64,000 nucleotides of DNA from Torpedo marmorata (lineage: Eukaryota), in contig OZ360227.1 of the NCBI GenBank assembly GCA_977017645.1, forward strand, positions 64,852,001 to 64,916,000, written 5' to 3'. The position numbers were made by a program, and so were the translations under genes. Shown piece after piece: positions 10,135 to 62,925 of this stretch. Position 1 is the first letter of the stretch. Each line of letters begins with the position of its first letter. The notes beneath the pieces were generated by a model, which was not told the origin of the DNA, did no database searches, and worked only from the letters and a program-made list of their open reading frames with translations.

Positions 10135-10695
10135 CTCTGACTAAAAACACAATGCTGAAGAAAATCAGCAGGTCACACAGCATACTTTATACAGCAAAGG
10201 TAAAGATACATAACCAACTTTTCGGGTCTGAGCTCTTCATCAAGGTGTAAGCAAAATGTAGGCAGGCGCCTGAATAAAATGGTGGTGGGGAGGAGCATAG
10301 GCCCACAGGCAAGAGGTAATAGGTGGATAAGTGAGGGTGGAGCACAAGAGAAAACAGGGGAGGGGTGATAGCTCTGTGAATGGGGAGGGAAAAGGGTGGA
10401 GAACTGGAGAAAAGGAGACAGAGGGATAGGGTAGAGAGGGAAAACGGGGAGAGATCTTGCAGAAACCGGAGAAGTCGATGTTAATGCCATCCAGTTGGAG
10501 AGTGCCCAGACAGAATATTAGGTGTTGCTCCTCCAATTTACGGGTGGCCCTCGTTTGGCAGTGCATGAGGCCATGGACAGACATGTCGGCGTGGAGTGGG
10601 GCGCAGAATTGAAATGGTTGGTCACTGGGAGGTCCCTGTCATTGATGCAGACAGAGCGAAGGTGCTCAGCGAAGCGATCTCCCAGTCTGTGTCCA
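10135..10695 (-). mobile_element. Penelope-like element 3' fragment (GIY-YIG C-terminus plus terminal region with degenerate hammerhead motif)
   Basis: TGHRLGDRFAEHLRSV...LPVTNHFN and RKLEEQHLIFCLGTLQLDGINIDFS; homologous to 54880-55531. Confidence 0.85.
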
Positions 10696-11059
10696 GTGAT
10701 GTTCGAAATAGTGTGGAGCTTCAGATTATACAATACAACCAGGGATCTGAGCTTGCACTCCTTCAGTACAATATGAGAGCATCACACCAATTGCACTTAG
10801 GGCATGCACTACATTCCCCGGGCACAAGTCCGAACACACAGCCTGGAGCACCATACTTCCAAGAGCAAGCCACCCTCTCCAGATGGAATTCCCAGTTGGA
10901 AAGAAACAGCCATGCATCTGCTGACATGAACCAGGAGGTAACATCATAGAATTAGTCATAGAGGCAGCATAGAAACAGGCCTTTCAACCCATCCAACCAT
11001 GAATCATTCATTTACACTAATCCTACATTACTTTTTTCTTCTCTCCATAATCTCTTCAA

Positions 11060-11285
11060 CATGCCCCGGATTCTACCAGACAGCTACACACTAGGGGCAA
11101 TAAACAGTGGCCAACTAACCTACCTTCCACACTTCCACACTTCTTAGAGATGTCGGAGGAAACCAGTGCACCCAGAGGAAACCCACATAATCACAGGGAG
11201 AACACACAAACTCAACACAGACAAAACCCAAGGTCAAGGTCTCTGGCACCATGAGGCAATCACTCCACTCACTGCGTTGTGCAGC
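11060..11285 (-). mobile_element. Degenerate V-SINE (HE1-like)
   Basis: Reverse complement has TTCTCCCTGTG...GGGTTTCCTCTGGGTGCACTGGTTTCCTCC, matching the central domain of the SINE copies at 28403 and 63576. Confidence 0.7.
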
Positions 11286-12491
11286 CCACAACACCATGGG
11301 GAAGTCATGGTATTGGAAAAGAGGGCTAGCTTCTGTACACATTGGAGTTTGTTGTATGAAAGGCAAATGTTTTACTTTGTTAGCTATAGAGTTCAGAGTA
11401 TGCCAGCATGCACATCCTTATATCATTGTAGTTTATTCAATCAACTTAGATTTGTACAGTAAATTCCATATTCTTTTCAGGCTAATTCAATGATGTGTTG
11501 TTGGACTCAAAAATAGCAGATGAAGATAATAACATTTCCTGGTCAATCACTCCGTCAAGAGATTCACCAGGGAAGATATGAACAACATGGTTTCTGCCTC
11601 AGATCCCTTCCCACCCTGTTGGAAAAGTACTGAGATACAAGTTAAGTCTTTGATATAATGAAGTGCAAGTCACAGACAAACAGAAAGGGCTTAAAACAAA
11701 ATCAGACCCCAAGGTAAACAGATACTTATCTACAGTAGTGAGAGATTAATAAAGAATTTTACTAGATACCGATGATCATTATAAGACAGGCAATGGACAC
11801 TGGGGAGATTCTCAGATTGGAAACAGGGCAAGAGTGGTCATTTGCAAAAGCGTAATAAGTTCATCAGAGGCAATGGCAAACTCATTAACATCACCTCCAT
11901 TACAGGATTAAAAGTCAGAATTAAAAACCCACGAGTAACAGTCAATACACCTTTTACAGGTAATATCTTGCCTGCCCAACTATCTCAATATATCTCAGGA
12001 AGTAACAAAGTGCAAAACTTCCAAATGCCTTTTAATACAGCTCAAAGCCAAAAGATTGTTAATTCATCGCAAAATACAGGCATTAAATTTGATCTGTGAA
12101 ATAAAAGGAGGTAGCCCAGGAGCAAAATATGTGAGCAAGATGAAAATGCTGAACAGGTGTAAATAATTTATCAAAGGAAAGAAAAATATAGGCAATGTGA
12201 AAACTTCATAAACAGTGTTTGAAAAGCTAATCAGCAAATTGTAAAATAAAAACCTAAAATTCTCAGTAAATTCAACATCATAGGCTAATGAAAAGCAATA
12301 AACATCAAACCAAAACATTACCGAACTACGTAATCAATTTAACTCTGGCCAACTGCATCTTGGGTGACCTAAAGCTTTTATCACACTGCTTGAACATTTT
12401 TTTCCATAGCAAATTTCCTATATTCAGCCAAATGTCACAAACTCTGAAGCACAAATTAAGTTTCTGCAATAATTTGCAGTATTTCATAATA

Positions 12492-13157
12492 CAGTAAAAC
12501 CCAGTAACCGACAAAAGAAAAAAAAAATCGAGGAAAATAAATTTTAAAAGTTAAAATAAATAATAGAATAATAGGTAAAAAATACGTAAATTTAAAATTG
12601 TAAAAGTAAATGTTCTCTGAAGGAACACATAAACCTTTGGTGAAGGTGGGAACAAATATTCATCCAGCGGAGTGCTTTGGTCGTGCTTTGCTCGTAGCAG
12701 CTGTTTGAATAAAGTTGTGTGAAACAGCAATGGCGTCGCCCAGGAGGAAGAGCTGGTTGATGCCACTTGCCGTTGGGATAACTCTCTTAAAGTGTCTCCT
12801 TATCCCTGCTTAGTAAGAGTTGCCCCAGTCAGAGGCTTTATCTGTAAACTTGGGGTTAATTATCTATAATGTTATTGTTCGTCTTTCTGGTGGCTCCGTG
12901 GAGGGGGAGGAACCTGCAGATGCAGCAACGGTTAAATGTTTTCAAAGAATGTGACTGAAAATAAAGTAAAATGCTTTAAGGTTTATATATTCAAGCAAGT
13001 GAAGTTTGTTCAGTGTAAGTACAGTATAGTAATTTTGTCTTTTGTCTTTTAAACTGTTTATTCTTAATGCAGGTGTATTAGTTAGGTAAGCAACCGGAAA
13101 ATACACTTATCTGGCACCTACCAATCCCCATAGGTGCCTGATACCAGGGGTTTACTG
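12492..13157. mobile_element. Non-autonomous Tc1/mariner-pogo (Tigger-like) DNA transposon
   Basis: TA at 12490-91 and 13158-59; termini CAGTAAAACCC ... GGGGTTTACTG; near-identical second copy at 59529-60851. Confidence 0.85.
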
Positions 13158-16100: not shown

Positions 16101-16555
16101 TATACATTGTTCAGATTAAACTATTCTGGGTTAAGGAGAGAATAATTGTTCAAAGCTTTGTTGCCAACAGCTAAAGTTGTTGGGACCAAACCCCTTTAAA
16201 ATATGCAAATCTACTGTAGTTTAGTGAGGACAGGCGGACAGCCTTGGGATCCAAAATAATGTGGATGCTGAAAATCTGAAATAACAATAGCAACTATTGC
16301 AAATAATCAATTGATCATGTAGCATTATGGAGTGATTTTAAAATGTCGGTAAATCAGGAGTTCATCAGAAGCACTAAAGCGTTAACTTCAGCTTTGGACT
16401 TTACTGTGACACTTTCCTTGTGACCAGAATCAGTCGACTCATCTAAAAATCTACGATAAAAAGTCACTGGAGAAGCTGTTCATATCGATGTTTGGCTGGG
16501 GTCGAGGAGTCAAATTCATTTTTGCAGAGGAGCTTTCACTTCAAGCGTCAGCCTT

Positions 16556-17143
16556 TTTTTAAAAAATATTTTATTTAAAATTTTTAAATCACAAAATACT
16601 TAAAATAAAATATACTGTTATGAAATTATTTGTGATACATTTTCACCCCCCCCCTCCCTCCCTCCCCTCCCCAACCCTCCCAATCCCACTAATCTAATAA
16701 AAATATAAAATAAAAATAGAAAGAGAAAGAAAGAGAAAAATAGAGTTAGGGGAATGCCAATCTATAAACTACTTCTATTATGGAGGTCAAGTATGCCAGT
16801 AGACCCAATACCCAGAGATCCTCAAATTCTTAAGCCAACAGCTCTCATATATGGGCTCCAAATTTTTAAGAAAAAATGATATTTATTACGTAAATTATAA
16901 GTAATTTTTTCAAGTGGTATACATGAACGAAGTTCTGCATGCCATCTTTCTAACCCTAAATCTAAATCAGATTTCCAAGTAATAGCAATACATTTCTTTG
17001 AAACAGCAAAAGCAATTCACAAAAATTCTATTTGATACATATTTAATTTCATCTTAATACTAAATTTTCTAATATCTCCAAACAAAAATATCATAGGATC
17101 CATTGGAAACGTAATTTTAAATACTTTATCTAAAAAACTTTTA
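16556..17143 (-). mobile_element. 5'-truncated L1 (end of ORF2 plus 3' UTR), same subfamily as 46549-49538
   Basis: 15-bp TSD TCAAGCGTCAGCCTT at 16541-16555 and 17144-17158; reverse complement closely matches ~48935-49540. Confidence 0.93.
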
Positions 17144-19747: not shown

Positions 19748-19792
19748 ATGGACGGATTTTACGATCAGCAAGTTCCTTTTCTGGTGCACAAC
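19748..19792 (+). CDS. ETV5: ETV5 coding exon 1 (MDGFYDQQVPFLVHN; may end at 19798)
   Basis: PEA3-family N-terminus MDGFYDQQVP; two in-frame GT donors at 19793 and 19799. Confidence 0.9.
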
Positions 19793-23400: not shown

Positions 23401-26284
23401 TTTTTAATTGGATACAGTTATGCCTTTTGAAGAGATTTTCCAGAAAGTATTGTAAGAACACATAGGCTGAATTCTGCTTTGCATTATCATTCATTGCTAA
23501 ATTGTCTTGCAATTAAATAGATTTCACTGCAGTTATTGGCTTTGTATTGTGACTTAAGTCAGCTTTCCAAAATTGTTCTCTGTGGTAATGGTGATGTGGC
23601 AAGTCAGACTGCTGTTTGCCTTTAAAGTCCTCTGATTTCCCTCAGGAACAATGAGATACACTTGGAACATATGTGGCTTCACTGACTCTTTGGCACACTG
23701 CATCAAAATTAAATTCAATGTTACTGGATCTGCTTTATTCAGTGTGGGACTTTACAACGAGGCAATGCCAACTCCATTATAATTGCAGGAGATGACACTT
23801 TGCTTAGGTAGTTGATGGCCATTATGTTTTTATATTGTTAACCAAGTCACCTGTCATTCTGCATCCCCTCTGTAACCCCATTGCAATAGACCATGCGCTG
23901 ATAAATGAACTCCACCAAAAAGTACAAAGAGTCAGGTGAACATCAGGTGTGCCTCTTTGTTCTTGCTTTTGACTGTGCAGTGATGAATTATACATAATTA
24001 GTGGCAAGGAAGTGAGTCTGGTTGGCACAGCTATTGCTTATATGAGTGGACAATTTTGTTCAATTCATCACAATTCCTGCTGCAGTCTTGAGGTCCTAAT
24101 ATGCTCCAAAAAGTAGATAATAAAGGTTAACAATTCACACAACTCTCAGAGCTGAAAGTTTGTGCTTGCCTCCCCTCTACTGTGGTGATCACTAATGGAG
24201 GCGAAGAGTAAAGGTTATTGACCTTGAACCATGCCTGCATTTAAAAGGCTGGAGAAAAATTCCAGCCCATCTGCAGCCTTCAGACAATTTTTCTGTGCGT
24301 GTTGTGGCCTGTGTGATGGCCATCTCTGTCTGGTTCAGTGAGTCTTCATTGATCATGTGATGTGCCTGGAGGCACAATCTTGATTGGGAAAGTTTTAAAA
24401 TTTTATTTTAAACTTTATGAAAATATGTTCTAATTGACTGTTTTTTCCTCAAAACAATTGTATATTAAACATAAGATTTTAGGTAATAGTAATAAGTTCT
24501 GTATACATCTTGTAATTAACCTCTTGATGCCAAGCCTACTTGCAACAAAGCCAGTTTTTCGCATTGCTTGTTCAACTAGTGGCATCTTCGTGATGCATTA
24601 AGCTTTTGTATAAAGTAGGAGCATTTTTCTCCTCGGCAGTTGCCATTTACCCAATTTCTTTGGTATTTATTTACAGTTTTCTCCCAACTAGCCTTTCCCT
24701 CTAGCTCTTATTCTACTAATCAGTAGAATATCAAAATATATGCTTTATTATTCCAGAGTAGGTCATGGTACACGTATGGAGAAAATAAAATTACACAAGG
24801 TCAAGTCTTTACAAATTTCACTGTTAAAATAATATACAAAAATGAGATTTTGGTGAATGAATTGTCAATTTTTTTTATTGACTACAAATACTTGGGTTTT
24901 AGGAATTGATGAGAACTTGTATCATGTAGTGAACATCAAAATTTTATAATTGCCTTTGAGTGCATCAGGTCCAAAGGGGGAAATTTTGGTTGGTGAGTCC
25001 CCTTTAAGCAAGTGTTCAACAAGAAACAGGAGGAACTTACTTTTCCATGTTGGTGCCTAGTAAATGCCATTCCCGAAGGTGCAGTGTTGATTTGATTCAG
25101 TAAGTTCCTTTGAAATTGTGTCAAACAAAACTAAGTGTTGATTTAAATGCAAAGTGAATTTTTAAAATATCATTGAGCCTCCTGCATTTAAAACTCAACT
25201 TTGTCATTGACTGTAAACATCTTTTTTTGGTGATTTATTAAGAATAGGGTTTTGTTTACTGCTGGCCACTTCCAATCATCAACCATATGACCACTCTTAC
25301 TCTACTGAACCCCCTCCATTTTTACACTCACACACTGCAGTGCTCCCCTGATCCCCACCTTCGTGAACTTGAGTTTGTCAGATCCTGTTCAATCATCGTA
25401 GAACAAAGAACATTACAGCTGTTACAAATTCAAACCAGCAATGACAGAAGACGCAATGCAAAAGGGGCAAAATTGAAATTTTTATTTATTAATGACAATT
25501 AAACATATAATTTCACAACAATCAACCCCACTATAAATGTCTATAAACACTATTCTTATCGTGCGCGTGCGCGCGTGTGCCCCCAAGCCTCAAGAAAAAA
25601 AAATTGAAAACCTTCCCCAAAACCCAAGGCCAGTCATAACAATTAGTCAGTCCCAAAAATATAGTCCACAAAATTAACTCTCTATGTTCAGGGTCCAATT
25701 TCACCTCTGTGCGCTGGCACCAAGGACATCTTAATGAACGTTGGAGAGAGAGACAATGACTGTTTAAGCTTACGAATGCTTGGCCTGCTTTTCTTCCAAT
25801 GGCTTTCCCTTTTGGTAGGTGCACGAGGGTTGCTGTTACAAATCAGTATACCACTGATTGAGGCGTGTACGTGTATCTCACAGCCTGTCTCGCTGATCTC
25901 ACGCCTGTTCTCCACGAAAGTTGCTTTAATCTCAGGATTTTGCTGATACAGGAGGCCATGTGCTATTCTCCCAGCCTTTCTCACTGGAATGCACAAGCCT
26001 GTTTCTGATGTTGTTGCTTCAGCCTTTTGCAACTCCAAACTGAATGCTTTTTGCAGAGGTTTGCACCTGCTTTTGTAAAAGTGCAACAAAGTATCTTTCC
26101 ACAGCCTGTCTCTCTATGTCTCTCTCTGAGCACAGCCAGTCCTGGGCAAGTTAACTCTTTCAGTACCTGGTCCCAGTGTGTACCCAAAAGACTTCATCCT
26201 CCTGCTGACCGTCCGCAGTCCAAATGGTCAGTCATGGTCCATAACACAGCATAGTCAGCTCCTTTGGCCCATGATCATAATCAG

Positions 26285-26700
26285 AGAAATACAAACGCTG
26301 TAGATGCTGGAAATCTTGAGCAGATAAAGAATTGCTGGAGGAACTCATCAGGTCAGACAGCATCCATGGGTTGAAATGGTCTGTCAACGTTTCGGGTCTG
26401 AACCTGTTATCAAGACTAATATAAAATAGGTGAAATTATCTATATAAAGGGGGAAAGGAGCTGGGCCCAGAGGTAATATACAGGACAGAAGGTGTGAGAG
26501 GTGGAGAGACAGAGGGAGAAACCATTAGGAAAGGGGATGAGGAAAGAAAAGTTAGAGAGAGAGAGAAAAAAGGTAAAGAAGAGATGGAAACTAGAATCAG
26601 ATAAGGGTAAGGGTTACCTAAAGTTGGTGAAATCAGTGTTCATGCCATTAGGTTTAAGGCTTTTCAGGAGGAATATGATGTGTTGGGCTCTTACTCTGGC
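26285..26700 (-). mobile_element. Penelope-like 3' terminal fragment with variant hammerhead motif
   Basis: CTGGAGGAACTCATCAGGTCAGACAGCATC...AACGTTTCGGGTCTGAACC resembles the termini of the GIY-YIG-bearing copies; purine-rich tract and degenerate endonuclease end follow. Confidence 0.7.
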
Positions 26701-28640: not shown

Positions 28641-30377
28641 TGAATTACATTTAAAGAGTGCTGGGTAGTATTTGTCCCTCAAATCACATCTGAGTGAGCT
28701 TGTTATGTGATAACTGGCATCTAAGTTTTCTATATTAGCATACTGACTACACTTGAAAAGTACTTTTTTAGCAGTAAAATGCATTGGGATGCCCTGAAGC
28801 TTTGGATGATAAGATATAAATGCAAGTCTTTCTTTCTTCATTTTGCATCTGTTTTGAAATATCACGTGCATAAAATATGTAACCATTGTTAGCCCATTCT
28901 GGTGATTCACAGCTGCCACCATTTTGCAGCTGTGCACCATTTTCAAACTGGAGCATAGAACCTTAGACTAAAGCCATGGAGATAACAATTGACGTATGTT
29001 CAGTACTGAGTGGTGATCTTGTAAGATGATATGATTGCTGACAGTCAGGAGAGATAAACTGTAGGTTATTTTTTGGGGGAAAAAAACTAAAAATATGTGA
29101 AGAGATAGCTGTTTTCTCATTTTTAATTGTTAATTAGAAAATTATATGGGGACGTTGCTAATTAAAATGTGTATGAGCTAAATAGTAAAAGTGCTGCGTA
29201 ACATGGGTTGTAAAACCGGGCAGCCCTTGTCACATGCTTGCTATAGGGATTGAAAATCGGCTTGCATGAATGGTTCAGGGATGGCATGTCCTGGACAATT
29301 TCAACTGTGTTATCTGTCACTGAACTTTGGCTTTAACCAGGATGCTTTTTTAAAAAAAAAAAAAAAAAATGTTGCCGATTCTGGAAGTCTGAAGTGGAAA
29401 CAGGAATGTTGGAAATACTCAGATCAAGCAGAAACTGGAAAGAGAGAAACCAAGTTAATGCTTCAATTGGTTGGCTGAGGATTTCTCGCATTTATCTGTT
29501 TTCACTTAGCAAAGGTAAAGACTGGGATAAAGTGCACAAATACTCTTAACAGTTACATTTTAATCTTTGGCCTTACTAAATGTGCATGGATATTTAATAA
29601 TATATTCTAAGAAGCAAACTGTATAGCCCAGTGGTAGTAATCCTGGAGTTGGATGGTTTTGTTGTCAAGAAGATCTATATTTTTTTTCAAGGATTGGAAT
29701 CTCTCCTCCAGTGAAATTCAATCTTGAAAAGGTCATTAACTTTCTCACAAGATGCAAGGGTCAATGTCTGGCCTCCATCTGTAAACCATTCACTGTCTCC
29801 ATAAGAATGTTTCCTCACAGTCAACCTCAAGCTTTGGAATGCACCCGTTAGATCTGTCTAGTTCAATAATTCCGTTGCACCACGGTGAGAGAATTCCTAT
29901 CTGCTGCACACAGACACTTTATCTCTTGAAGATTTGTTAATTAGTTGATATCAATGTGAAATCTAATGTTCACCAAGGTTATGTACGTTTTATGGATGTT
30001 TTAAGGATATGTACATAATTCATAATCTACTGTTGTGAAACTTTGTAAATTAGCATCTGATCCATCCTTTTTCCGTTTATGTGTTGGTAACATACGAGGG
30101 TGTTCGCTATCAGTTATTAATCCATTATCATTTTTTCTTCCCTCAGTTCTTTCTCCCCAAACAATAAGCTGCAATAAAGCTGACACTTGTTTAAAAAGAA
30201 ACTGATCTGTTTTTGGCCTACCACCTCCCCCACCCGTGTACTTTCATCTGGACAATTAAGGTTGACCCTCAAAGTCCAATCAAATGCTTGTTAGTACTTA
30301 CTTGTCATTGTCTATCTTAGTTTTGCATCTGTCATTCTCTATGGCTAGAGTTACAATGTGAACTTATTTTATTTCAG

Positions 30378-32839: not shown

Positions 32840-35139
32840 GTAAGTTCTAAATCACTCTGCTGCCCTGTAATGTGTGTAAATTAGATCTGTGAATGAAGAA
32901 AAACAAATGTTGGATTCTTAATCAAACAATTAGCTACTGGAGGAACTCAATGGGTTAGACAGCATCCATGGATAGAAATGGTCAGTCAGTGTTTCGGGTC
33001 GGAACCCTTCATTGAGACTCGAGCCTGTAGTTTGCTGGATGTGAATGATGTGCCCTGATTGCTTTCCCAGATCTCTATGTTGCAAACTTCTTTGCATCAG
33101 TTTTCTTCCTCTAAGGTGGGCTTTCTGCTGCTCTGTACTGACCTCCGGGGTCTTAGCTGTTCCTTCCCCTAAACTAGGGAGGAAGTCAGTCTGGGCTCTC
33201 TGTATCCAGCATAACCTTGCTCAGAGCTGAATGTACAGCCGGATTTAAACCACGTCCACTGTTTACAAGGCTCAACCGTTTGAGCGAGGTGTTTTGGAAC
33301 ATCTGTGGAATTGTACAGAAGCTCAGGGGTGACACGGCCAAACGAATTAGTGGGGGGAAAGGGGACATTTGAGCAGGAAAAAGTGATTTCTTGGCACATT
33401 GGCTTCCTTTAATCATAAAATGCATCAAACGTGCTGTCTTGCCCCAAGGCACTGATTAATTATTAATAATAATGATCATGAGTTTATCGTCATACACATT
33501 GTGCAATGAACATATCCATTGACATTCTTGCTTGCTGCAGCTGAACAGGTACTTGTAAAAACCATAATAGTTAACTTAGTTGAATTTAAAAAAAGACAAT
33601 AAATACATAAGATAGGTAATAAATATTCACAGTAATCCTAGTGCAAAAAAAACAGACTTGCAATAGTACAGATAGTCCTTTTGTGCTGTCGGAGCAGTCC
33701 CTGACCAGTGTAACAAGGGGAGGTCATTAAATAAGAAAGAGGAGCAGGAATAGACTGTGGTATCTCAAGCCTGCTCCACAATTCAATGTTAACGTGGCTG
33801 ATCTATCCTTGGGCCTCATTCCACTTGCCTGATTCCCCACCCCCCCCCCCCCCACCGTCCCCACCCCACTCCTTCATAACCTACCGTTTAAAAATTCAAG
33901 ATTGAATACATTAATTTACACAGCATTCCCTGATGTCTGTGGTGGAGAACTTCACAAATTCACAATCCTGAGAGAAGAAATGCCTGTACATCTGTCATTA
34001 TTTTGGGACAGTGTCTCCGCATTCTAAAGACCCACCATGAGGGGATTGCAGCCCCTTCTTCCCATATCAAACAGCCTCATCATCTGAGCTGTCATGAGAA
34101 ATAAGTACACATTGTGCCCCTGTCAAACCCTCCATCTGTGTTGCCATGTGCCTCTGGAGTTTAATTGGAGTTATTTTGGGAGTCTCGGTAGAATAAATAA
34201 AAGATCTGTAATGTTGCTGAAATCTCAAAGGAGAGCAGGAAGATGGTATTTTGGACAGTGGCAGCTCCCTGGTTAGCACCTGCTTCTGTGGCATCTATTA
34301 CTTCCCACAGCTCTTGGTTTCCACCTCTTGCCAAGTGGTATGTGCGGGATGCTGGCTGGAGACCATCTGGATGTGTTTGTTCCGATGGAGGCATACCAGT
34401 AGAGCGATAGATTTCAGTTTGGCAGGCAGGTTGATACAAAGTGGAAATGGGACTAATCCGACAGCAGTCAGCTGTGAAGGATCAGTTTACATGGAAAGTG
34501 GTGCCGGGGACCTGAGTGATTTGCAAAGGGCTGATTTGTGTGGGATCGCCTTTCAAGGTGCTAAATGATTCTCAAGAGTTCTATTTTGGAGATGTGCTGA
34601 CCAGCCTTCCATAGGGGAAGTAGTGATAGAGTCAAAGCAACATTCCTTTAGTCTGAAAAATAATTTAACCTGCATATTCTGTTCAGGGCGTTCTGAGTAT
34701 TCACTACTTTAATGCAACAGCCTTTTAATAAATATATGCTGCTTTCCAAAAAATACATTTTTATCTCGTAGTTCCACATGTTTGACCAGACAAGCATGTC
34801 TTAAGTTAAGGATGACACTGTATAATCATTTATAAATGGTTAGAGGTCTTTTTCTATCACTTGACTTCCAAATAATAGTCTTTTTTAAGCTTGCATGCTA
34901 ATTTGATGTAAACACTTTTTTTGCTGATTCTGGTGTGGTGTTCACACAACCTGTACATCATCCCCCCAATTAAAACTTTTGGAGGCAATTTAAGTAAATG
35001 TGTATGGCATGGTGCCCACAAGAAGGGCTGTGCTTTTATTTTTAATCGTTCTCCTATGCAATGTTTTGTGTCTGGTGATAATGTTTGCGTTGTGAGAGGT
35101 GACCAAATATATTGAATCTTTTTTCTCGTCGTTTCAAAG

Positions 35140-35378: not shown

Positions 35379-35470
35379 GTTGGTTTTCTCTTTAGGCAAG
35401 TGTTGAAGCACACAGATCTGTGTTTAATCCAATCCTGGTTGGCTATTGATTGCATTCTGATGGTTAAAAG

Positions 35471-35835: not shown

Positions 35836-36879
35836 GTTTAAAGGAATAAACCTGGATCCTCTTCCTGCCCTTGGGTATTTTGCATCGCCTTTGTTATCTT
35901 TTGACATCAGCAAGCTGAGAGATTTGTTACCACGGTGATGGGCATTGGTTGACATTTCACATGTTAAATTTATGGAGGTAGCCTGACAGACTTAGCACAT
36001 TCTACAAAGCAACCTTTCAGTCTTGCAGTGACTGGAAAGGAAACCATTACAACGTCTAGTATTTAGAATAATTCCTTTATATTGATTTATAAAATAAATA
36101 TTTAGCCCAGTGCTTGGTCGATCCTTATTTTTAAAGAGAAAAAGTGCCCAAGCTTGGCTTAAATATTTAAAGGATCATGCTTTTTGTACATCTTTTGCCA
36201 AATTCTTTCTTTAAGGGTGTTATTTATCTGATGCTCCATGACGTAACTGTAAAATCTTCTAATCAGTTTAGGCCTATTAATACTATAACCTAACAGGAGG
36301 CAGAGAGTGGGGATTGCTGTAAACCCAAGCAGATGGTTAAGATTTAAATCTAAAGGACAACATTTAACAGTGACTATAAGGCTTTAACAGAATGGATTTT
36401 TAAAATGTAGGTCATGGTTTCCTGTAACTTGTGGTTCACCAGTTAGTTATCATTGGTTCATCCAGTGGCGTATCTAGGTAAAATAGCACCTATGGCAAGC
36501 ACTCAAATTGCACCCCCCTCCCTGTTAAAAAATCGCAAATAAAGTTGCCAGTTGGGCGAGTTCCACGCACAATTGGGCTAGTTTTGAAGATCGGCCGCAT
36601 GTGATTTGGGCATAGTTTTTTTTTTATGTCAGACAAAACTGCTAAAAGGAATAAAATGTCCTTTTATGAGGAGCGTACACTTCCCTGAACAACGCTTCCA
36701 TTCCGTTTATCTGCTTGCCACTATAGTGCAGGCAATTGCTTTGGAGTTTTTTTTTTAGTTTGTAGTCTATAATACTTGTCCATCGCTTCAATTAGGAGCA
36801 ACAAAGAGAGGGCTTTGTAATGCAATTATCTTGTTAAGGAGAGCGCAGACTCTGAACGCAGTTTTGTAGTAAATGATTT

Positions 36880-37200
36880 CATTTACAAAAGACGGGCGTG
36901 GGAAAATGGTAACGGGGATAACACACACACGCACACAATTTATAGCGAGCGTGGGAAACCATAGCAGCAATAAAACACATACGCACACAGTTTATAGCGA
37001 GCGTGGGAAAGTTGTAGCGGCGATAAAACACATACGCGCACAGTTTATAGCGAGCGTGGGAAACCGTAGCGGCAATATAAAACACATACGCGCAGTTTGT
37101 AGTGAGCATGGGAAAGTCTCACCGGCAATAAAAAACACGCGTACAATTTATAGCGATCGTGGGAAATTCGCAACTGGGATTAAATACACGCACACACACA
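36880..37200 (+). repeat. Six-unit ~52-53-bp tandem repeat with core TTTATAGCGAGCGTGGGAAA
   Basis: CGTGGGAA at 36897, 36950, 37002, 37055, 37158 and CATGGGAA at 37107. Confidence 0.9.
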
Positions 37201-38966
37201 ACAAACTGGGTACATACAACAATCAAGGAAAACCAATACAATACCCACCACGCCACCCCTTGACTCAGTGCAGGCACACGGCTCTATGCTACTACTAGGA
37301 ACACTAATTAAACACTTTCAACCCTTTAACAGTGCACATCTTACCAACAACTTACCAACAATTTCTCCAGCGCCGTTCTACGGTTCTAGGCCTGGAGTGA
37401 AGCAGGGTGGTCTCAATGGCAAAGAGGGCAATTTGAGCACACGTGGCGCCCTTTATAGTGCTGGAGGGCTGGGGAGGGTCCAGCCCAGGTTGTTTACAGG
37501 GGACCAATGGCTCGGTGCCAGTAAGGTTAAACCAATTACAACAGCCAATGGCCCAAGGCCAAGTACAGGCGGGCTGGGGAGTCCAGCCCAGGTAATTTAC
37601 AGGGGGCCAATGGCTCAGTGCCATCAAGGTTAACCCAATTACAAAGGCCAATGGCCCAAGGCCAAGTACAAAGGAATTTAAATTGGCCAATGGCAAGGTG
37701 TGCACTAATGGGTGGGGTGGGGCGGGGCAGGGCGGGGCAGGGCAGGGCAGGGCAGGGTGGGGCGGGGTCAAACCTTGATTGGCAGTGCTGGGCAGTGCTG
37801 TCACGTGACAGCCACGACCCTTCACAATAGAGTGGTGTAATGGTACTTCCTCAGATTATAGTATATTACCCTTTTTAGTCACACACCAACACGCTTTTAA
37901 TTCACGTTTTAAAGATGATACATTTTCCAGTGAAACAAGAGAGTTTATAGTGAGCGTTGGAAACAGTGGCCCATTGAATTTCAAGGGAGTGTGGTGGAAA
38001 CAGGACCCCTGTGAATTTCAAGTGAGTGCAAGTAATAGGGCCGTGGTTTAGTTCCAAGGGTAACAGCCCAATTAGTCAAGGAAACATGTGAACGGGGTCC
38101 TCAAAGAGTTTGGAGGGAGTCCTGTAAAAGTCAATATGCCAATTAGCGGTTTGCGGAGTTTTATTGTAACTCTTGCGAACAGCAAGGGAACTGAAGTCAC
38201 ACAGGAGACTGCAGATGCTGTAATCTATATCGAAATACAATTTACTGGACGAACTCAGCGGGTCAAGCATCAGTGGGATAAAAATAATTGTCGACGTTTC
38301 GAGCTGAAACTCTATCAAGACTCAAGCCTTAACACCGAAAGATCTTGTACTCTTTCAATGGGTAAACTGATTATCAAGGAGCCTAGATTTAAAAAAGCCA
38401 AATGCAAAAAATTATTTGAAGCCTGCCCCTTGGCTTCACTCTTTCTTTGAAATTGGTTTTTAATTCGCTTTTTTATATTGTTTTCAGTTTCTTTTATTTC
38501 TGGAAATTCAATTATATGCACATTATTTTAAAAGTTATACTTTTAGCAAATTTTCCACCCTTTTAAATTGAAAAGTGTGCCAAAGATAGCGACACACAGC
38601 TCGATCCAGGGCGGTTGGGCGTCGGGAGTTAGATGGTGGGGGGGGGGGCGATGGACGGGGCTAGGTAGGGATCAGCGACAGCGAGGCCGAGGTGGTCCGG
38701 CGTCGGTCGGGAGTTAGATGATGGGCATGGGGCAGTTGGAGTTGCTTTGCAGTTTAACCCCGGGCACTGCCTTTTTGAGACAGACTGCGGTCTGCCATTA
38801 ATCTAATAGCCTTTTAAGAAAGAATAGTCACATCATGTATTCAGCCACGCTCTTGCCAAACTAAAGAAACATTTTATTTTATAAAATAGACGTAATTGAC
38901 GACAATTAGATTTACAAATATGTACAAATAAATGTGCTTCACAAAGCACGTGAAGAGCTGCACAAT

Positions 38967-39097
38967 CACAGAGGATCCCTGCCACACAGAGGATCCCTGC
39001 CACACAGAGGATCCCTGCCACACAGAGGATCCCTGCCACACAGAGGATCCCTGCCACACAGAGGATCCCTGCCACACAGAGGATCCCTGCCACACAG
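38967..39097 (+). repeat. Perfect 18-bp minisatellite (CACAGAGGATCCCTGCCA)x7
   Basis: Seven identical units plus a partial CACAG. Confidence 0.97.
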
Positions 39098-39882
39098 CTC
39101 TTTGTTTTATCTAGTGCTTGTTGATCTATTCATGGCTAGAATTAGCTTTACAATGAGACGAGTCGATAAACTTCGTGGGTCTCTTCATCGCCCGTTTACA
39201 AATTAGTTCAACTTGTCTGACAGACACTGGCTTGATTTCCATCAGAAAGCAAATTGTGACAGTGTCATTAAAGAACTTCTGTTGCCCATACCTCGAAGTT
39301 CTTTTGTCAGATGAAGATTCTTTGTTGGGCTCGGGACTCGGGAGTTCAATATTGGGCGGGCGAGGACAGTGGCGCCCCCCTTCAAGTGGCGCCCAGGGCA
39401 TGTGCCCTAGCTGCCATACCCTAGATACGCCTATGGGTTCATCTGTCAGTCTGGCAGAGAGATGCTACTTAATTGGTCAACAACCAAGAAGCAAATTTTG
39501 TTAGCCCAATGACAGTTTGGTCTGATGTGACACGGCTGATCAAACTTCATATGTAAGCTTGTGTTGACACTGCTTTGGAGATAGATTCAGTGCAGTACTG
39601 AGTCTGGTTTTCCATGTAGATTTTTCTAATGGGTCATGTGGATCTTAACAGCTCAGAAGTGGCAAAGATCTCTCCATGCCATACTTTAAATGATTTTAAT
39701 TGGTGGTGGAGTGCTTTATGGGCTTTACCATAGGCAGAAGCAAAAAGCAGCAGCTCATGAATAGGGTACACCCTCACTGACCTCTGTACCTCATTCTCCC
39801 AACTTCTTCCAGTCAACAAGTCTCTGCCATGAGTGTCTTGGTTTCTGGGCCTATACCTGGTTTTATCTTGTCCTTAAAGAAC

Positions 39883-40204: not shown

Positions 40205-41439
40205 GTAAGTTTCATTGACCTCTCCACCAATGCTGTTTACTATAATAAAAACAAACTGGAAATTCTCGGTGGGTCAGGCAAGATCAATGAAGGGAGAAGC
40301 AAAGTTAACAATTTGGGTTGATATCCTATCGGGTTCTGATCAAACTGAAAAATTGTTTCCATCTCCAGTTTCTGCCTGATTTGTTGATGGTTTTTGGCAT
40401 GTTCTGTTTTCACCCAACATCTGCTGTTACTTGCTTTTGCATGTTTGTCTATTGTAATAATGTGCACTGAGAGATGTGGATCCACAGTGGATACAATGTT
40501 ATAACCACCAGAGTAATCCAGTAGTGAATTTGACCCAAGGGTTGAAATAGAGGACGGTATTATAGAAGTCAATGTTTTGATTCTGCAAAGGATGAACAAA
40601 CTGCAGGTAATTAAGACTATTGGTTGAGATAGAGCATGAATCCTGCACATAGATCAGATGTTTTCATCAGGAGGAAGAGCACCAAAGTGTTTTGTTCATG
40701 TACACTGCAGAGTGCTAGCTGGTTGCTTGCACCTGTGGAACCACCTCAGCAGAGATGGGTAACAAAGCCATTTGGGCAATCAGTCTTCAAAAAAAAAATG
40801 TAGCCCAGCACCAATTTAAAAATGGCACAGTTTGATGTACTCCTCAGAACAACTCTGTTTCCACTTCCTCTCACTTTGCCAAGCAGCCGACATGAATCCT
40901 GTTCATGGGGATTTTGGGGCTGAAGTTACAACAGAAAAGAATGACGAACTCTCAGCAGGTTCCTAGCTGTAAACTTTTCCACCTGATCCTTTACAAAAGA
41001 AATGAAAGTGTAGGTCTGAATTTTCAGGAGGGTTGCATAAATGCTTCTTGAAAACGGTGTTTACTGGTATGGAAAATTGTTTCTTCCATTTGATTTGTTC
41101 ACATATGTACTTATCAGATTGAAACGTGCAGGTGTAAAAATAAAATTAATTTGGAACGCTGAGGTTTAACGGATCTGTTAACATTATGATTTACAGAGGT
41201 CTCGGGCAGCTGCTGGTGTGCTGCTTGTTCCTGTTTCTTGTTGTACGTTCTCTGTCAAGCAGTGTTATCTGCTGTGGCTACTGCATCTGTTGCAAATTTA
41301 CCTCAGCCTTCTGATGAGGTATTGCTTGGTAACATATTTGGAAAAATGCAAGATTGCTCAAAACCTCAACATAAAATTCAGGCCATCTAACTCGGTGTAT
41401 GTGCTTTTTTTTATATAAATTTGCACAGATGCATGACAT

Positions 41440-54775: not shown

Positions 54776-54879
54776 TAAGGGTCAGCCATCAGGTTAATAG
54801 TTAGGCAGTACCCAAAAGAAAATAACTTTCCTCAGCAATCTAGGTCTTAAGTTGCAGATGACAATGTCTCCACTGTCAC

Positions 54880-55531
54880 CCTCACCACAGTCCAGGGCCC
54901 CAAACAGGCCTTCCAAGTGAAACTACACTTCACCTGTACATCCAGAGAACTTATTTACTGCATCCGGTGCTCCCTTTGTGGCTTTCTATACATTGGAGAG
55001 ACCGGTCGTAGATTGGGAGACCGCTTTGCTGAGCACCTCCTCTCCGTCCGCAACAACAGCGACCTCCCAGTAGCCAACCATTTCAATTCCGGGTCACACT
55101 CCCACACTCACATGTCTGTCCATGGCCTTATGTACTATCCCACCCAGACTACCCGCAAATTGGAGGAACAACATCTCATATTCCGTCTCGGCACTCTCCA
55201 GCCAGATGGCATTAACATTGACTTTTCTGCTTTCCACTAAACCTGCTTGTCGTTCCCTTCCCCTCCCCCCTCACCTGTCCTTCCTGTTTTTGTCCCCTCC
55301 CTCCTTTCTCCACCTATCATCTCCTGCCTTTGCCATCCCCCTTCCCCCCTCACTCCTTTGTTCGGACGCCTGCCGGCATTTTCTCATACTTTGATGAAGG
55401 GCTCAAGCCCGAAACGTCGGTTATGTATTTCTACCTTTGCTACATAAAAGACACAGTTTGACCTGCTGAGTTTCTCCAGCATTTGTGTTTTTTACTTCAA
55501 CCACGGTGTCTACAGATTTTCGTGTTTTACT
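54880..55531 (+). mobile_element. 5'-truncated Penelope-like element (GIY-YIG domain plus hammerhead-bearing 3' end)
   Basis: 13-bp TSD TCTCCACTGTCAC at 54867-54879 and 55532-55544; open frame LIYCIRCSLCGFLYIGETGRRLGDRFAEHL...GINIDFS. Confidence 0.92.
55385..55425 (+). ncRNA. Putative minimal type I hammerhead ribozyme variant
   Basis: CAUACU-UUGAUGA-A-GGGC(UCAA)GCCC-GAAA-CGUC-GGUUAUG: core boxes, stem II hairpin, palindromic ACGU stem III, GUC triplet, bulged stem I. Confidence 0.65.
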
Positions 55532-56859
55532 TCTCCACTGTCACAACCTTCGAATCTTCCTTTCCCTCTTAACAGCAATGGCAGAGATAATTTCATCAGC
55601 AAGATCACAGTTGTAGTTAATTGTACCTTGGAAAAATATGGATTAATTCAAAGTCATTACAGTATAGACAAATGGAACAAAGAGGGGTTGATATGGTAAT
55701 GAAGTTGATATATAGATGGATTTTAAAAGGTATTTGATAGAATGCCATATAATTGGCCTGTAGGCAAAACTGAAAGACAAACCTGAATTCAAAATGCTGT
55801 GGCAGTATTGGTAGAAACCGGGATAAATGTCAAAGCAGAGAAGTGATGAATCCCAGCTACCATACTGGAAGAAAGTGGTGTTCCATTGAGGACCGCCTGA
55901 GGATTCTTGCAACATATCAAAGGCAGGAGCAAAAGCTCAACAACTCCTATCTTTGCTATGTTACACCCAACCCTGGCATCTCCCAGCAGGACAGGGAAGA
56001 TGTCCAATTCAAGATATCTAAACTTCAAGACTTGTATAAATACTAACAAACCCAGATCAGTATTACTTGATCCTCAGGAATTTTAACTGGTGAACTATCA
56101 AGATTTGGATAGTTTTCACGTCGATGATCACTTCTTGTACATCATTTGATGGGATTAAGTAGCCCCATTCTGCCCTGGCAGTCCCTGTTGCAGATGAATG
56201 CAGAGGGCTGAGAAGGTGCAAGGTTTGATAGATTATTTTCCCTGGGCCCTCTTTACTGCTGAGGGTCCAGTTCTCCTTGACTTTTCTAATGTCTTACTGG
56301 TCATCATCTATCTTCCAGGTGCCAATAATGATGCCCACAGTCTTCCTGCATCAGTAGAAAGATAGTGGACATCAACAGGGGTATGGCCGTCCAATAGCTT
56401 GTAGCCAGTTCATTGAGGAAAGAGAAACAGAGTTAACCCGTTAGGTCGAAGACCTTCTGTTGGAATGACCTCCAAGAGAAATGGATAGATGGAAACAAAC
56501 TTTCAAAGATTGCAAAAGATGGGAAGATGACTGTTAAAAGAAGATGGGGAATTACTGATTTTACAAACAGAAAAATACATGAATATTCACTTCTGAAAGC
56601 AGTTGGGTTTGGGTGGATTGACATTAAAATGTTTATAGTAAAATTCAGATTTGACACTGTTGATAATTTGCTAACTTTGGTTTTAATTGTGGTGTAGTGA
56701 ATCCGAGGGTTGATTGGGGCACAGAAAACTAACCAACCCACTTTAATAAGACTGGGTGGTTATAACAAGTCTTGTTGGTTTTCAAGATCTCTGGAAATCC
56801 AGCAGCTCAAGAGAACAAAGGGCTGTTGGATCAAAGCAAAAAAAGCACAAAAGACAAAA

Positions 56860-58032: not shown

Positions 58033-58990
58033 GTGATGTGCTTTACAGAAACGTGGCTAAAGGCGGACATTCTGGGCACGGCGCTGCAGCACAAGGGCTA
58101 CACCCTCCATCGCGCTGACCAAACACCGGCGACTGGAAAAACCAGGGGAGGCGGCGTTTGTGCCATCATCAATTCATCATGGTGCACAGAAGTGTCGGTC
58201 ATGTCCCAGTCCTACTCCCCCGACCTGAAACATCTGGTGATAACAAGTGTCGCCCATTCTACCTGCCGAGGGAGTTCACCGCCATCATCCTGGTCGTAGT
58301 GTACATTCCGCCCCAGGCTAACGTCAGGCTGGCACTGGAGGGACTGAGCACTGTGATAAACAGCCATGAGACAGTACATCCTGATGCCTTCCCGAGCATT
58401 GTGGGAGACTTCAATCAGGCCAATCTGAAGAAGTCACTGACAAACTACCACCAACACGTCACATGCGAGACCAGGGGAACCAACACACTCGACCACTGCT
58501 ACATCACCATGAAGAACGCATACCGAGCCATACCACGACCGCACTTCGGCAAGTCTGATCACCTGGCTGTACTTCTACTCCCTGCGTACAAGCAGAGACT
58601 GAAGACCACAGCACCAGTGGTGAAAGTATGGTACAGGGAGGCGGAGGAGCGTCTGCAGGACTGCTTTGAATCGGTGGACTGGAACATATTCAAGAACTCA
58701 TCCATAGACCTGAATGAATATGCAACAGGTGTCACCGACTTCATCAAGACCTGTGTGGGTGAGTGTGTGCCCACGCGCAAATACCGGATGTTCCCCAACC
58801 AGAAGCCCTAGATGATTCAGAGAATTCGCAACCTGCTGAGGGCGAGAAGAAGGGCGTTTAAGGCCGGGGACCGGGATCTTTACAAGAAGTCCAGGCACGA
58901 CCTGCGGAAGGCCATCTCTGAAGCAAAGTGGCAATTGTGGAGGTAGCTAGAGACAGAGACAGATACACGCCAAACCTGCATGGCCGCAAA
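58033..58990 (+). mobile_element. Rex1/Babar LINE fragment (APE endonuclease region, frameshifted)
   Basis: CFTETWL, KTRGGGVC, CRPFYLPREFT, VVYIPP, GDFNQANL, TLDHCY, FGKSDH. Confidence 0.9.
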
Positions 58991-58999
58991 AACCCAACT

Positions 59000-59330
59000 G
59001 CCCTGGTAGACCCATTATCACTGCATGCTCCTACCCCACCAAACTGATATCATTGTACCTTAACTCCATTTTGTCCCTCTTGGTCTAGTTCCTTTCTACT
59101 GACATCTGGGTCACCTCATATGCTCTCCATCACTTCGACAACTTCCACTTCCATGGGTTGGATCACCTCATTTTCACCATGGATGTCTAGTCCCTATACA
59201 CTTCCATCCTCCATAAAGAAGGCCTCAAGCCTCTCCTCTTCGTCCTGGACAATGGACCAAACCATTCCCCCTCCACCACCACCCTCCTGCACCTGCAGAA
59301 CTTGTATTCACTCTCAATAACTTCTCCACT
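59000..59330 (+). mobile_element. Degenerate Penelope-like RT fragment
   Basis: Translates to IFTMDV*SLYTSILHKEGL...ELVFTLNNFS, resembling the Penelope RT motif region. Confidence 0.65.
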
Positions 59331-59528
59331 GGGTGAGAGGGTGACAGACATGGGGAGGACATTTGAACACCAGCATCAGGTAATCCACACCAAGAACAAT
59401 AAATGCTGGAAATAACCAGTAGCATGAGCAGAGAGAAAGAGTTAACGGTTCAGCTTAGAGCTGCTCCCTCAACAAATACTGTCTTTACAGAATTGTCTTA
59501 TTGTTTTCAACCTTCAGTATCCCCAATA

Positions 59529-60851: not shown

Positions 60852-61589
60852 TATTTTCTTTCAGATATGTACTGATCAGCACAGGAAAATGGGAGAAAGA
60901 GAAAAACTGCATTTACACAGGAGCTTCCTTATTCATTGCACCTTATAATCTATTATTTAAATTCCATCTTAAGTTTCACATAATTAACTTCAGTGTCCTT
61001 AACCTAAGGAAGGGTAACATTAAGAAAAATGACCTATCCTGTTACTCCTTGCTGAAAAGTGTTAGAAAGAACAAGATTGGATTTCGCTGCAATACCTTCC
61101 ACAGATAAATAGAATGCCCGCGCTACACCTGTCCATTCATTTCTACCCTTCCCTTCCCAAACCTTTAAACTAACACCAAACAATTTTTCCAGGTGAAAAA
61201 GTGATTCACTTACACTTCTTCAAGTGGTGTTTACAATGTGGTCTCCTGAACACTTGAGAAACCAAACCTAGGGGTGACCCTGAGCTTGCTGTTGTATGCC
61301 CTTTTAATTCACAATCCCATTTTATTCCAACCTGTTGCTAGCTCCTCCACTGCCATACGTAAATGACAACAACATCTTATCTTTTATCCAAGCACTTTGC
61401 AACCCTCTGGAATAAACACTGAATTTTCTAACAAATAAACTGCTCTCTCATTGTTTCCCATTATCAGGCTTATGTCCCCTTCTCATCCTTTTCTTAAAAT
61501 ACTTTGCTGACGATCAGTACTCATGCTCCTTATCACTTACACCACCTTAACCTGTCTCCAGATTGGCTTTTGTCTTATACCATACTCCT

Positions 61590-61882
61590 TAGAACCATAG
61601 AACACCACAGCACAGAAACAGGCCCTTCAGCCCATCTAGTCTGTGCTGAACTATTATTCTGCCTAGTCCTATTGACCTGAACCACAGCCCTCCATACCCC
61701 TCCCATCCATGTACCTGTCAAAATTTTTCTTAAATGTCAAAATTGAGCCCGCATTCACCACTTCAGCTGGCTGCTCGTTCCACACCCCCACCAATCTCTG
61801 CGTGAAGAAATTCCCTTTAATGTTCCCCTAAACATTTCACCTTTCACCCTTAACCCATTTCCTCTAGTTCTTGTCTAACCTA
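61590..61882 (-). mobile_element. CR1 LINE 3' end
   Basis: TAGAACCATAGAAC tail and TGCGTGAAGAAATT...TTTCACCCTTAACC (reverse of the FFTQR region). Confidence 0.75.
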
Positions 61883-62792
61883 ACTTCCTTCCCCTGCTCT
61901 CCTTTTTAAAACTGTAAACCCAACACTCTTGCCCCCAGTTCTGAGGATCACTGACCCAAAATCTCGACCGGTTGCTCTTTCCACAACTGCTGCTTGACTA
62001 GCTGAGATCTTCCAGCATTTTTTTTTCTTGTTTTTGCATCTACTCCATCTGCTTGACACCATCGATTTGACGGAATGTGTGATATTTCGTGGAAAACAAC
62101 AAAATTGTAAAATTATCAAAGGAGAAACTTAAAAGAATATCTTTTATTTGGAAGGTGATGAGAATGTTAATTATATTACCACTGGTTTAATGTTATTTTT
62201 TTTAAAAAAGGAACTGAATAAATATTTGAAAAGGAAGGGAATAAAATTATATTAAGTAGAAGAAAATGTGCTGAGTGGACTGTTACTCCCCAGAAGAGTA
62301 TATGTCCATCACAAACGATCAGTCCTTGGTATGTGTTCAACATAGCAGTTTTGAATATCCAGTATTAACATGTCCTCCCTTTAATAACTATATCAAAAAT
62401 AAAATTATTTCAAAGAATTGGAAATCAAAAGAATAGGAAAAATTTTTGTACGTAAAAACCTTTAAACTAACAACAAAATCCAATTAAAAGCCTCTATTTA
62501 TCATTCTCTGGGCAGCTGATTTCACCCATTGATCACAATGGACTCTGTACCTGCATCAGGTTAACCTGAGGCAGATTCAGCGGGCAAGACTTTTCATCCT
62601 GAGAGATGGAAAATCTGCTGAGGTTTGCACTTCCCACTTGGTCCATGGAGAATTCACATGAACCGTACTGAATGCGTGTGATTGGTGCTTACTGAGTGTG
62701 AGGCAGAGGTGCACTCAGGAACTGCCTGGTATGGTCAGTTTCACCATGACACGATCTCATTAACTCCTAGTCCAGCAAAACAAACTTTAAAA

Positions 62793-62925
62793 TTCGGACG
62801 CCTGCCGGCATTTTCTCATACTTTGATGAAGTGCTCAAGCCCGAAACGTTGGTTATGTATTTCTACCTTTGCTACATAAAAGACACTGTTTGACCTGCTG
62901 AGTTTCTCCAGCATTTTTGTTTTTT
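62793..62925 (+). mobile_element. Solo Penelope-derived terminal fragment with hammerhead motif
   Basis: Near-identical to 55361-55495. Confidence 0.85.

Follow-up and report, generated by a model that had tools for sequence, protein, structure and literature searches.

Penelope-like elements in the genome of Torpedo marmorata carry minimal hammerhead motifs with a U3·G8 core

Results

Hammerhead motifs and their host insertions

The window, as we call the whole 64-kb stretch of Torpedo marmorata DNA analysed here, carries six hammerhead-like motifs, each confirmed by sequence check at the coordinates and on the strand given in the first-pass annotation. Two fainter traces that it had placed near 61945 and 56435 also proved real, and a further three decayed copies were added by our searches, giving five beyond the six motifs. 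The features are listed below, with their basis in brackets.

54880..55531, + strand: 5'-truncated Penelope-like insertion with the GIY-YIG endonuclease end, 3' UTR, hammerhead and tail (long 3' end) (tblastn, TSD)
55385..55425, + strand: undamaged minimal hammerhead motif of the young subfamily A1 (sequence)
55464..55481, + strand: conserved hairpin 3' of the hammerhead (fold, subfamily consensus lines)
62794..62926, + strand: short A1 insertion with motif 62817-62857 (96% to the full-length element, ends, TSD)
10143..10697, - strand: older A2-type insertion with endonuclease remnant (tblastn E 1e-15; blastn 73% over 560 nt)
26283..26685, - strand: B-type insertion with endonuclease remnant (sequence comparison)
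32892..33020, - strand: short B-type copy with motif 32984-33019 (sequence; 5' end at the hammerhead edge)
36463..39435, no strand assigned: non-autonomous hAT-type DNA transposon hosting the 38290 fragment (TIRs and TSD)
38225..38327, - strand: frozen C-type fragment with motif 38290-38322 (passenger, not an independent insertion)
61943..62029, + strand: old decayed copy (profile match, E 5.5e-6)
56417..56467, - strand: weak remnant of an old subfamily, limited to stem II and the region of the cut site (nhmmer E 2.6e-4)
40241..40342, - strand: additional decayed copy (profile searches)
59392..59473, - strand: additional decayed copy (E 2.2e-5)
29383..29466, - strand: additional decayed copy, tail only (E 8.8e-5)

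The six motifs scored E values of 5e-24 to 6e-31 as self-hits against a profile built from the same six, and the best match of this first profile in the reversed window was E 0.23. The trace at 56417..56467, missed by the first profile, was recovered with an old-copy profile whose best reversed control was 0.058. A refined profile gave 163 matches in the window plus 1.264 Mb of evenly spaced genome stretches and none in the reversed control; the sample density of ~129 matches per Mb extrapolates to roughly 0.8 million genome-wide. An Rfam scan of the window returned no hammerhead family match at E<=10, and a strict structure descriptor found one copy (55385) against 0.37 in shuffles, which is not above chance; the significance therefore comes from homology rather than from the motif by itself. 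Damage to the core or stem II affects five of the six copies. The genome also shows why so large a hammerhead family escapes Rfam-style searches.

The undamaged motif at 55385 has a U3·G8 core, an extra A between positions 9 and 10.1 and a 4-bp stem II; a palindromic ACGU replaces stem III, the cut is predicted between 55418 and 55419, and the motif is identical in 22 of the 30 best genome matches. Its host insertion matches at 97.5% over 122 aa (tblastn, E 8e-76) and is flanked by a 13-bp TSD at 54867-54879 and 55532-55544; an apparent common start at 54879 is simply the truncation point of this copy. The hairpin at 55464..55481 is common to all subfamilies and immediately precedes the first cluster of 3' ends. 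In the short A1 insertion, which lacks the optional tail and has an 8-bp TSD at 62786-62793 and 62927-62934, the motif shows one stem II mismatch and a GUU triplet. The motif at 10208-10250 is U3·G8 with damaged stem II and ACGU, and that at 32984-33019 reads U3, C4, A5 and G8, the A5 probably reflecting CpG decay of G5. Beside the old copy at 61943..62029 lies an endonuclease remnant (61367-61429), with a ~300-bp dispersed repeat (61587-61887) in between.

Two copies reading UUGAUA had been interpreted as U3-A8. This holds for the motif at 26382-26418, where U3-A8 is a subfamily state rather than decay and positions 9a and 10.1 have decayed. It fails for the copy at 38290, a fragment with a 2-nt core deletion carried inside another transposon; the deletion and its passenger status rule it out as a selected U3-A8 ribozyme, and its C-type parent subfamily is mostly U3·G8. 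The fragment has 55 matches genome-wide, and the flanking element was common to all 30 loci fetched. The host at 36463..39435 has imperfect terminal inverted repeats of ~17 bp and a perfect 8-bp TSD (36455-36462 and 39436-39443), with TSDs at least 7/8 identical at loci L182, L186, L187 and L190; from the TIR and 8-bp TSD rule we take it to be hAT-type.

The parent element

Judged from sequence, the motifs are minimal (dimer-type) hammerhead folds in the terminal repeats of Neptune-like Penelope elements, and a hammerhead in Penelope terminal repeats is an already known arrangement. A full repeat-ORF-repeat unit of ~3.95 kb (locus L105) has 767-nt repeats that are 95% alike, each with a U3·G8 motif, and the predicted cut site lies 152 nt ahead of the ORF start. 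Partial-tandem pseudo-LTRs at two loci (L019, L022) read through into the next ORF. At another locus (L176) a frame of 840 codons is open; its matches to RT and, at the C-terminus, to GIY-YIG are both below the curated Pfam cut-offs (RVT_1 E 2e-5, GIY-YIG E 0.004). Element translations show a CX4CX2C linker between RT and EN, and the CX2-5CxxC linker is described as a Neptune clade feature shared with Nematis (10.1101/2021.04.23.441226). The label Neptune-like is drawn from this Cys linker and would fit Neptune or Nematis alike. Other traits of EN+ Penelope-like elements are present, namely a single RT+EN ORF, pseudo-LTRs, 5' truncation, inverted 5' copies and an optional 30-40-nt tail, as are those of minimal PLE hammerheads: stems I and II, palindromic ACGU for stem III, the extra 9a and G10.1-C11.1. 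Subfamily consensus lines support the proposal of the first-pass annotation that several Penelope lineages are involved.

The 3-8 position of the core

The main core variant is not U3-A8. The dominant young lineage carries a U3·G8 wobble, which had been overlooked and is fixed there, with 60,951 exact genome matches to the lineage pattern. All 42 young-lineage copies have U3, while position 7 varies (U in 27, A in 14, a gap in one). The G8-to-A change that would create U3-A8 in this pattern has 616 exact matches, about as rare as the control G5-to-A change with 529, and there is thus no return to a Watson-Crick pair beyond the mutation background. With C at 2.1, exact counts were 9,226 for U3 versus 158 for C3, and each of the 12 C3 loci inspected turned out to be a junction, a 1-nt deletion or a point change. 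Reading the motif in another register, with C3 plus an inserted U, was rejected because it breaks stem I.

Subfamilies differ in their 3-8 pair, with C-G, U·G and U-A all represented. Among 95 distinct full-motif copies from the even sample, 70 were U3·G8, nine C-G, seven U-A and nine other or gapped. A Watson-Crick 3-8 pair is not the state of the dominant lineage but is present in the B subfamily and most old copies, and in the older subfamily represented by 26382 the majority of copies have U3-A8, often together with C4. All subfamily consensus lines keep G5, A6, G8, A9, G12-A14, ACGU and the NUH triplet, with position 7 and loop II varying. This invariance argues that catalysis is still selected, and it counts against the explanation that we favour below.

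Stems and fold

Stems I and II do covary between subfamilies, as had been claimed, with few independent changes. In the covariation set, 95% of 180 cells were paired, against 22-48% in slid controls. Two-sided changes occurred in 3/9 pairs, a pair count reached by 141 of 500 shuffles; the set was hand-picked from related sequences and rests on about three independent changes. Two of the two-sided changes fall in the A lineage, in its bulged stem I. The suggested selection for ribozyme structure fits the fold, and that fit covers the fold and not cleavage. The lowest-energy fold of the monomer is a rod in which the core strand pairs with the cut-site strand (-11.8 kcal/mol, versus -7.7 for the hammerhead model).

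Ends of copies

Separate family status is not supported for the solo ~130-nt elements, which are copies of the coding element shortened from the 5' side; their 5' ends are scattered and their flanks unrelated. The 5' ends of short copies lie just in front of the fold: 30 of 124 fall at -42..-26, the 5' edge of the hammerhead, compared with 4 and 7 in the 17-nt bins on either side (binomial p 2e-7), although divergence from the references used may account for some of the ends near -40. Only 3/124 lie within 2 nt of the predicted cut site and 10/124 within 8 nt. Ends were mapped against references, all-against-all mapping being confounded by inverted pairs, and of the 30 copies in the peak, 13 each form one arm of a head-to-head inversion. 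What looked like a common fixed 5' end near -1058 is an artefact of a deletion in the reference, and a splice junction at helix I was rejected as the flanks of peak copies have no common sequence. The 3' ends are bimodal, near +75 and +110, indicating two fixed sites about 35 nt apart. The window contains no head-to-tail arrays of short hammerhead units; members of the family occur singly or as inverted copies. Eleven sequencing runs, all of them contigs, were compared and show the family in runs of several studies, which speaks to its presence and not to ends, strand or position 3 state.

Discussion

We think it fairly probable that the U3·G8 minimal hammerhead of the young lineage, as read from its sequence, cuts slowly or only with help, and that new copies arise from uncut RNA. 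The element protein would start reverse transcription at two internal sites; long copies would derive from the 3' repeat, and short copies would arise where synthesis runs off the 5' end of an RNA that begins shortly before helix I, probably at the transcription start. Selection in master copies would keep the fold, with its stems, invariant core and free position 7, and tolerate a weak 3-8 pair, U·G possibly being the stepping stone between C-G and U-A, an order suggested by subfamily comparison rather than by a tree. RT stopping or joining preferences could alternatively produce the 5'-end pile-up.

More tentatively, the core may have been caught crossing a fitness valley in nature: the oldest copies have C3-G8, one older lineage has U3-A8 together with C4, and U3·G8, the intermediate presumed to be crippled, is fixed in the lineage that now dominates. 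The hammerhead would then have turned from a cutter into the folded 5' leader of an uncut RNA, and hundreds of thousands of stubs would map the RNA start.

A rather unlikely alternative is that the U3·G8 hammerhead is a normal dimer or protein-assisted ribozyme which processes part of the RNA, for translation, turnover or circle formation, genomic copies coming from the uncut share. The conserved core residues, ACGU and NUH triplet would be expected of such a ribozyme; moreover, U3-A8 functions as a pair elsewhere (PMC3088659), a natural core that combines U3...G8 with an insertion has been published (PMC7151607) and the hammerhead of an anole element is reported to cut once protein is added (PMC11167929). 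However, more than 60,000 copies have not drifted back to a Watson-Crick pair beyond the mutation background, and 5' ends do not pile up at the cut. It is improbable that the motif is a relic, with cleavage and fold irrelevant, U3 having hitch-hiked in a successful master and the motif being kept only by descent or by an overlapping promoter. The few compensatory changes and the rod-like monomer fold are compatible with a relic, as is the internal promoter described near the RNA 5' end of D. virilis Penelope (PMC2377424), but the two-sided changes in stems I and II between subfamilies, and a 3-8 position still paired in 20/20 aligned copies, speak against it. That the ~110-150-nt copies are propagated by master copies of their own, as a distinct non-autonomous family akin to SINEs or retrozymes, is scarcely credible: short copies are many, that at 62794-62926 has its own TSD and the 5' pile-up is strong, but the 5' ends are scattered across 17 nt and further, every subfamily includes short copies whose diagnostic letters match those of its long ones, and the peak is rich in inversion arms, without head-to-tail arrays in the window.

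If, as we favour, copies of the young lineage come from uncut RNA, the family bears on whether Penelope hammerheads must cut at all, given their low activity in vitro and that cleavage was not needed for insertion in one reconstituted system. Three natural 3-8 states in related subfamilies, an element with an open frame and genome-wide counts together make a natural test of the need for cutting. In Anolis PAc (Poseidon), cleavage is protein-assisted and not needed for insertion, and two internal RT starts yield the optional tail (Frangieh et al. 2024, PMC11167929). As described there, PAc resembles the Torpedo element in its two 3' ends about 35 nt apart and uncut RNA template, and its extension of both strands would yield inverted pairs. 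In contrast, the 3-8 pair of PAc is C3-G8 and its ORF begins within the hammerhead, rather than 152 nt past the cut site, and the protein here has a Neptune/Nematis-type Cys linker.

The U3·G8 core fixed in a dominant lineage appears to be new, albeit a modest variant on a known kind. Our literature search for U3·G8 returned U3-A8 and one prokaryotic U3...G8 variant and none in PLEs, although earlier hammerhead papers may already report it. U3-A8 occurs in nature and U4C is tolerated in a viroid (Perreault et al. 2011, PMC3088659); the cases described there are rare variants in full hammerheads, whereas here a variant is the majority state of the genome's largest hammerhead family. Single mutants in the CUGAUGA region are reported to have low activity (PMC9901934). 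Published minimal PLE hammerheads are likewise described as type I, without stem III, with palindromic 15.2-16.2, an extra nucleotide at 9/10.1 and G10.1-C11.1, in many subfamilies and mostly as single dispersed copies or opposite-strand pairs, and a U3-A8 variant is reported for Schistosoma Cercyon elements. The fixed U3·G8, the U3-C4...A8 core and the clustering of 5' ends at helix I are absent from the available text of those descriptions, and stem II has 4 bp in the Torpedo marmorata copies. The Neptune and Nematis EN+ PLEs of Craig et al. (10.1101/2021.04.23.441226) are described with the same C-terminal GIY-YIG, DKG motif, CX2-5CxxC linker, partial tandems, inverted 5' copies and 30-40-bp tail. 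Non-LTR retrozymes (10.64898/2026.07.22.740005) similarly have type I hammerheads from PLE terminal repeats, but are described as tandem arrays, whereas in Torpedo marmorata the copies are truncated insertions of a coding element that occur singly or inverted.

Hammerhead copies and their host element

The six hammerhead-like motifs proposed by the first-pass annotation (10208, 26382, 32984 and 38290 on the minus strand, 55385 and 62817 on the plus strand) are present at these coordinates, and beyond the motif itself all six copies have in common a downstream segment closing with a small hairpin. Only 55385 is undamaged; a strict structure descriptor found one copy in the window versus 0.37 by chance, and an Rfam scan of the window reported no hammerhead. 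A profile of the six motifs found two further window copies at E<0.01 (best in the reversed window, E 0.23), and one built from 12 old copies gained 59392-59473 and 29383-29466 and recovered, on the minus strand, a faint trace suspected near 56435 (E 2.6e-4; reversed control 0.058). The refined profile gave 163 matches, with 0 in the reversed control, in a 1.264-Mb sample comprising the window and 120 evenly spaced 10-kb stretches of large contigs.

Sequence 5' of 55385 is the last part of a frame for a GIY-YIG endonuclease, whose product matches the protein of a near-identical copy at 97.5% over 122 residues; weaker endonuclease remnants are found 5' of 10208, 26382 and 61945. Two insertions carry target-site duplications:

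54880-55531, insertion with the 55385 motif, 13-bp duplication
62794-62926, short insertion, 8-bp duplication

Among the 30 top genome matches the 5' extent varies and most share a single 3' end. Elsewhere in the genome, locus L105 holds a whole, frameshifted unit of ~3.95 kb, flanked by two 767-nt repeats with a motif in each and with its ORF starting 152 nt past the predicted cut, and locus L176 has an 840-codon open frame (RVT_1 E 2e-5, GIY-YIG E 0.004, both under curated cut-offs) containing DKG and a CX4CX2C linker. Linkers of the CX2-5CxxC type mark Neptune/Nematis-type elements, according to excerpts of 10.1101/2021.04.23.441226. The motif shares the arrangement described in excerpts of PMC4209133 for PLEs, without stem III, with a palindromic ACGU and with an extra base between 9 and 10.1. 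In L105 and a further locus, L174, the ORF opens with several in-frame tandem copies of a 57-nt unit, encoding 19 residues each, and continues into a Pro-rich stretch; in L105 the RT part is in another frame than the N-terminal part, either through decay or through a genuine frameshift. An isolated RT fragment at 58987-59327 (plus strand) belongs to a related Penelope-like element and is 75% alike to the full-length unit.

A wobble core pair

Hammerheads in Penelope-like repeats are an already known kind; the variant with a U3·G8 core appears to be new among them. A natural prokaryotic U3...G8 core with an insertion is recorded in excerpts of PMC7151607. The even sample yielded 95 distinct copies with the full motif, and their 3-8 pair is U3·G8 in 70, C3-G8 in 9, U3-A8 in 7 and other or gapped in 9. 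The median distance to the nearest neighbour is 0.065 for U3·G8, 0.23 for C3-G8 and 0.19 for U3-A8, although abundance also shortens distance. U3 is constant across the 42 young copies, 27 of which have U and 14 A at position 7. Exact whole-genome counts in the context of the A lineage (A1, young, as at 55385; A2, older) were 60,951 for U3·G8 and 616 for U3-A8, which is near the mutation background since the control change G5-to-A gave 529. With C at 2.1, U3 matches numbered 9,226 versus 158 for C3; the 12 C3 loci inspected were truncation junctions or the product of a single-base deletion or a point change, and do not make up a subfamily. Given that single mutants of this core region were all low in activity in a deep mutational scan (excerpts of PMC9901934), analogy suggests that the U3·G8 core is slow in the present element. 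By parsimony only, the order of states would be C-G, U·G, U-A.

In subfamily B (the 26382 type), by contrast with the A context, U3-A8 is a real subfamily state, which bears out the earlier proposal that 26382 carries a swap and not decay. A B-context pattern left open at positions 3, 4, 7 and 8 gave 106 matches, and among the 100 listed, tallied by hand, there were 69 U-A, 13 U·G, 9 C-G, 5 C·A and 4 others. Positions 3-5 in the 82 U3 copies among those listed read UCG in 33, UUG in 31, UCA in 12 and otherwise in 6 (Fisher p 4e-4, the copies not being independent); C4 is common within the U3-A8 subfamily, and UCA and part of UUG probably reflect CpG decay. Excerpts of the literature record U3-A8 in Schistosoma PLEs (PMC4209133) and in other natural hammerheads, and U4C in a viroid (PMC3088659). 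The lowest-energy fold predicted for the 55385-55425 monomer is rod-shaped, its core strand being paired to the strand of the cut site; C4 would give an equivalent B rod an added Watson-Crick pair, possibly an off-state.

Clustering of 258 distinct full copies, a mix of even-sample and search-derived loci, placed A-lineage subfamilies 4.5-15% from their own majority lines, and B and C (C being the parent of the 38290 fragment) 12-18%. The claim of covarying stems was supported, on few independent changes. A set of 20 representatives chosen by hand had 95% of its 180 cells paired (slid-structure controls, 22-48%), and two-sided changes between subfamilies occurred in 3/9 pairs; within the A lineage, stem I changes from CAUACC/GGUUAUG to UAUUCC/GGCAAUA around a bulge. 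The covariation score was reached by 0/500 shuffles, but the count of two-sided pairs was reached by 141/500, and since the sequences are related we read the covariation as few independent events and not as a significance test.

Origin of the short copies

We mapped 124 non-edge A-like copies onto 15 reference copies, dropping 7 edge copies and counting from the predicted cut (0). Of these copies, 37 are long and 30 have their 5' end at -42 to -26, whereas the 17-nt bins on either side contain 4 and 7 (p 2e-7); this peak persists in the even sample alone, in copies at least 90% alike and in non-inverted copies. Helix I starts at -34. Run-off on uncut RNA that begins just 5' of the fold would produce ends at these positions and, judging from these sequences, is probably the source of the peak. 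Starts near the cut are few (10 within 8 nt, 3 within 2 nt), and some mapped rows downstream of it are older families matched by tail only. The 3' ends cluster near +75 and +110, resembling the optional tail that excerpts of PMC11167929 tie to two internal RT start sites. In D. virilis Penelope, which has an internal promoter (excerpts of PMC2377424), the hammerhead is close to the RNA 5' end.

We consider it probable that the element would be transcribed from its 5' repeat, that the hammerhead fold would lie at the start of its RNA, that the element protein would prime at two sites downstream of the fold, that long and stub copies alike would be made from uncut RNA, and that the wobble core would cut slowly or only with protein. 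The main rival, in which the ribozyme works normally and handles a side fraction of the RNA, seems to us rather unlikely. Cut RNA is disfavoured as the source of the copies because its end would be at 0, and RT stalling at the fold because a stalled RT would stop on the fold's 3' side.

Head-to-head inversion arms make up 13 of the 30 peak copies. Six loci elsewhere in the genome (L048, L063, L091, L101, L055 and L031) have very short copies paired head to head and joined near the hammerhead 5' edge; such pairs are often unequal, one arm having a tail and the other lacking it.

The 38290 copy and other repeats

The 38290 copy has 97-99% matches across the genome (55 pattern matches) because it is part of a larger element of 2,973 bp (36463-39435), which has terminal inverted repeats and is flanked by a perfect 8-bp duplication. 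From these two features we take the element to be a non-autonomous hAT-type DNA transposon. UUGAUA at 38290 had been taken as U3-A8; since most of its parent subfamily C has U3·G8, U3-A8 occurring in some members, and two core bases are absent from the copy, this UUGAUA cannot count as a swap kept by selection. On the minus strand of the element, directly downstream of the captured Penelope fragment, lies a promoter-like run. Its parts are two 103-nt repeats containing CCAAT boxes, along with GC-rich repeats, a TATA-like motif and a site resembling a splice donor; 52-nt tandem repeats come next. The run may have served as promoter for a transposase since deleted.

The window also contains other repeats:

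2001-6140, 46001-49540 and 16554-17143, AT-rich LINE-like fragments with poly(A) ends, related at 75-93%, presumably L1/Tx1-like
35464-35842, small MITE-like element with long terminal inverted repeats (arms 35464-35513/35793-35842 and 35538-35583/35711-35756)
11138-11247, 28403-28539, 31937-32046, 41634-41732, 50328-50499 and 63557-63748, second dispersed SINE-like family, 70-87% alike
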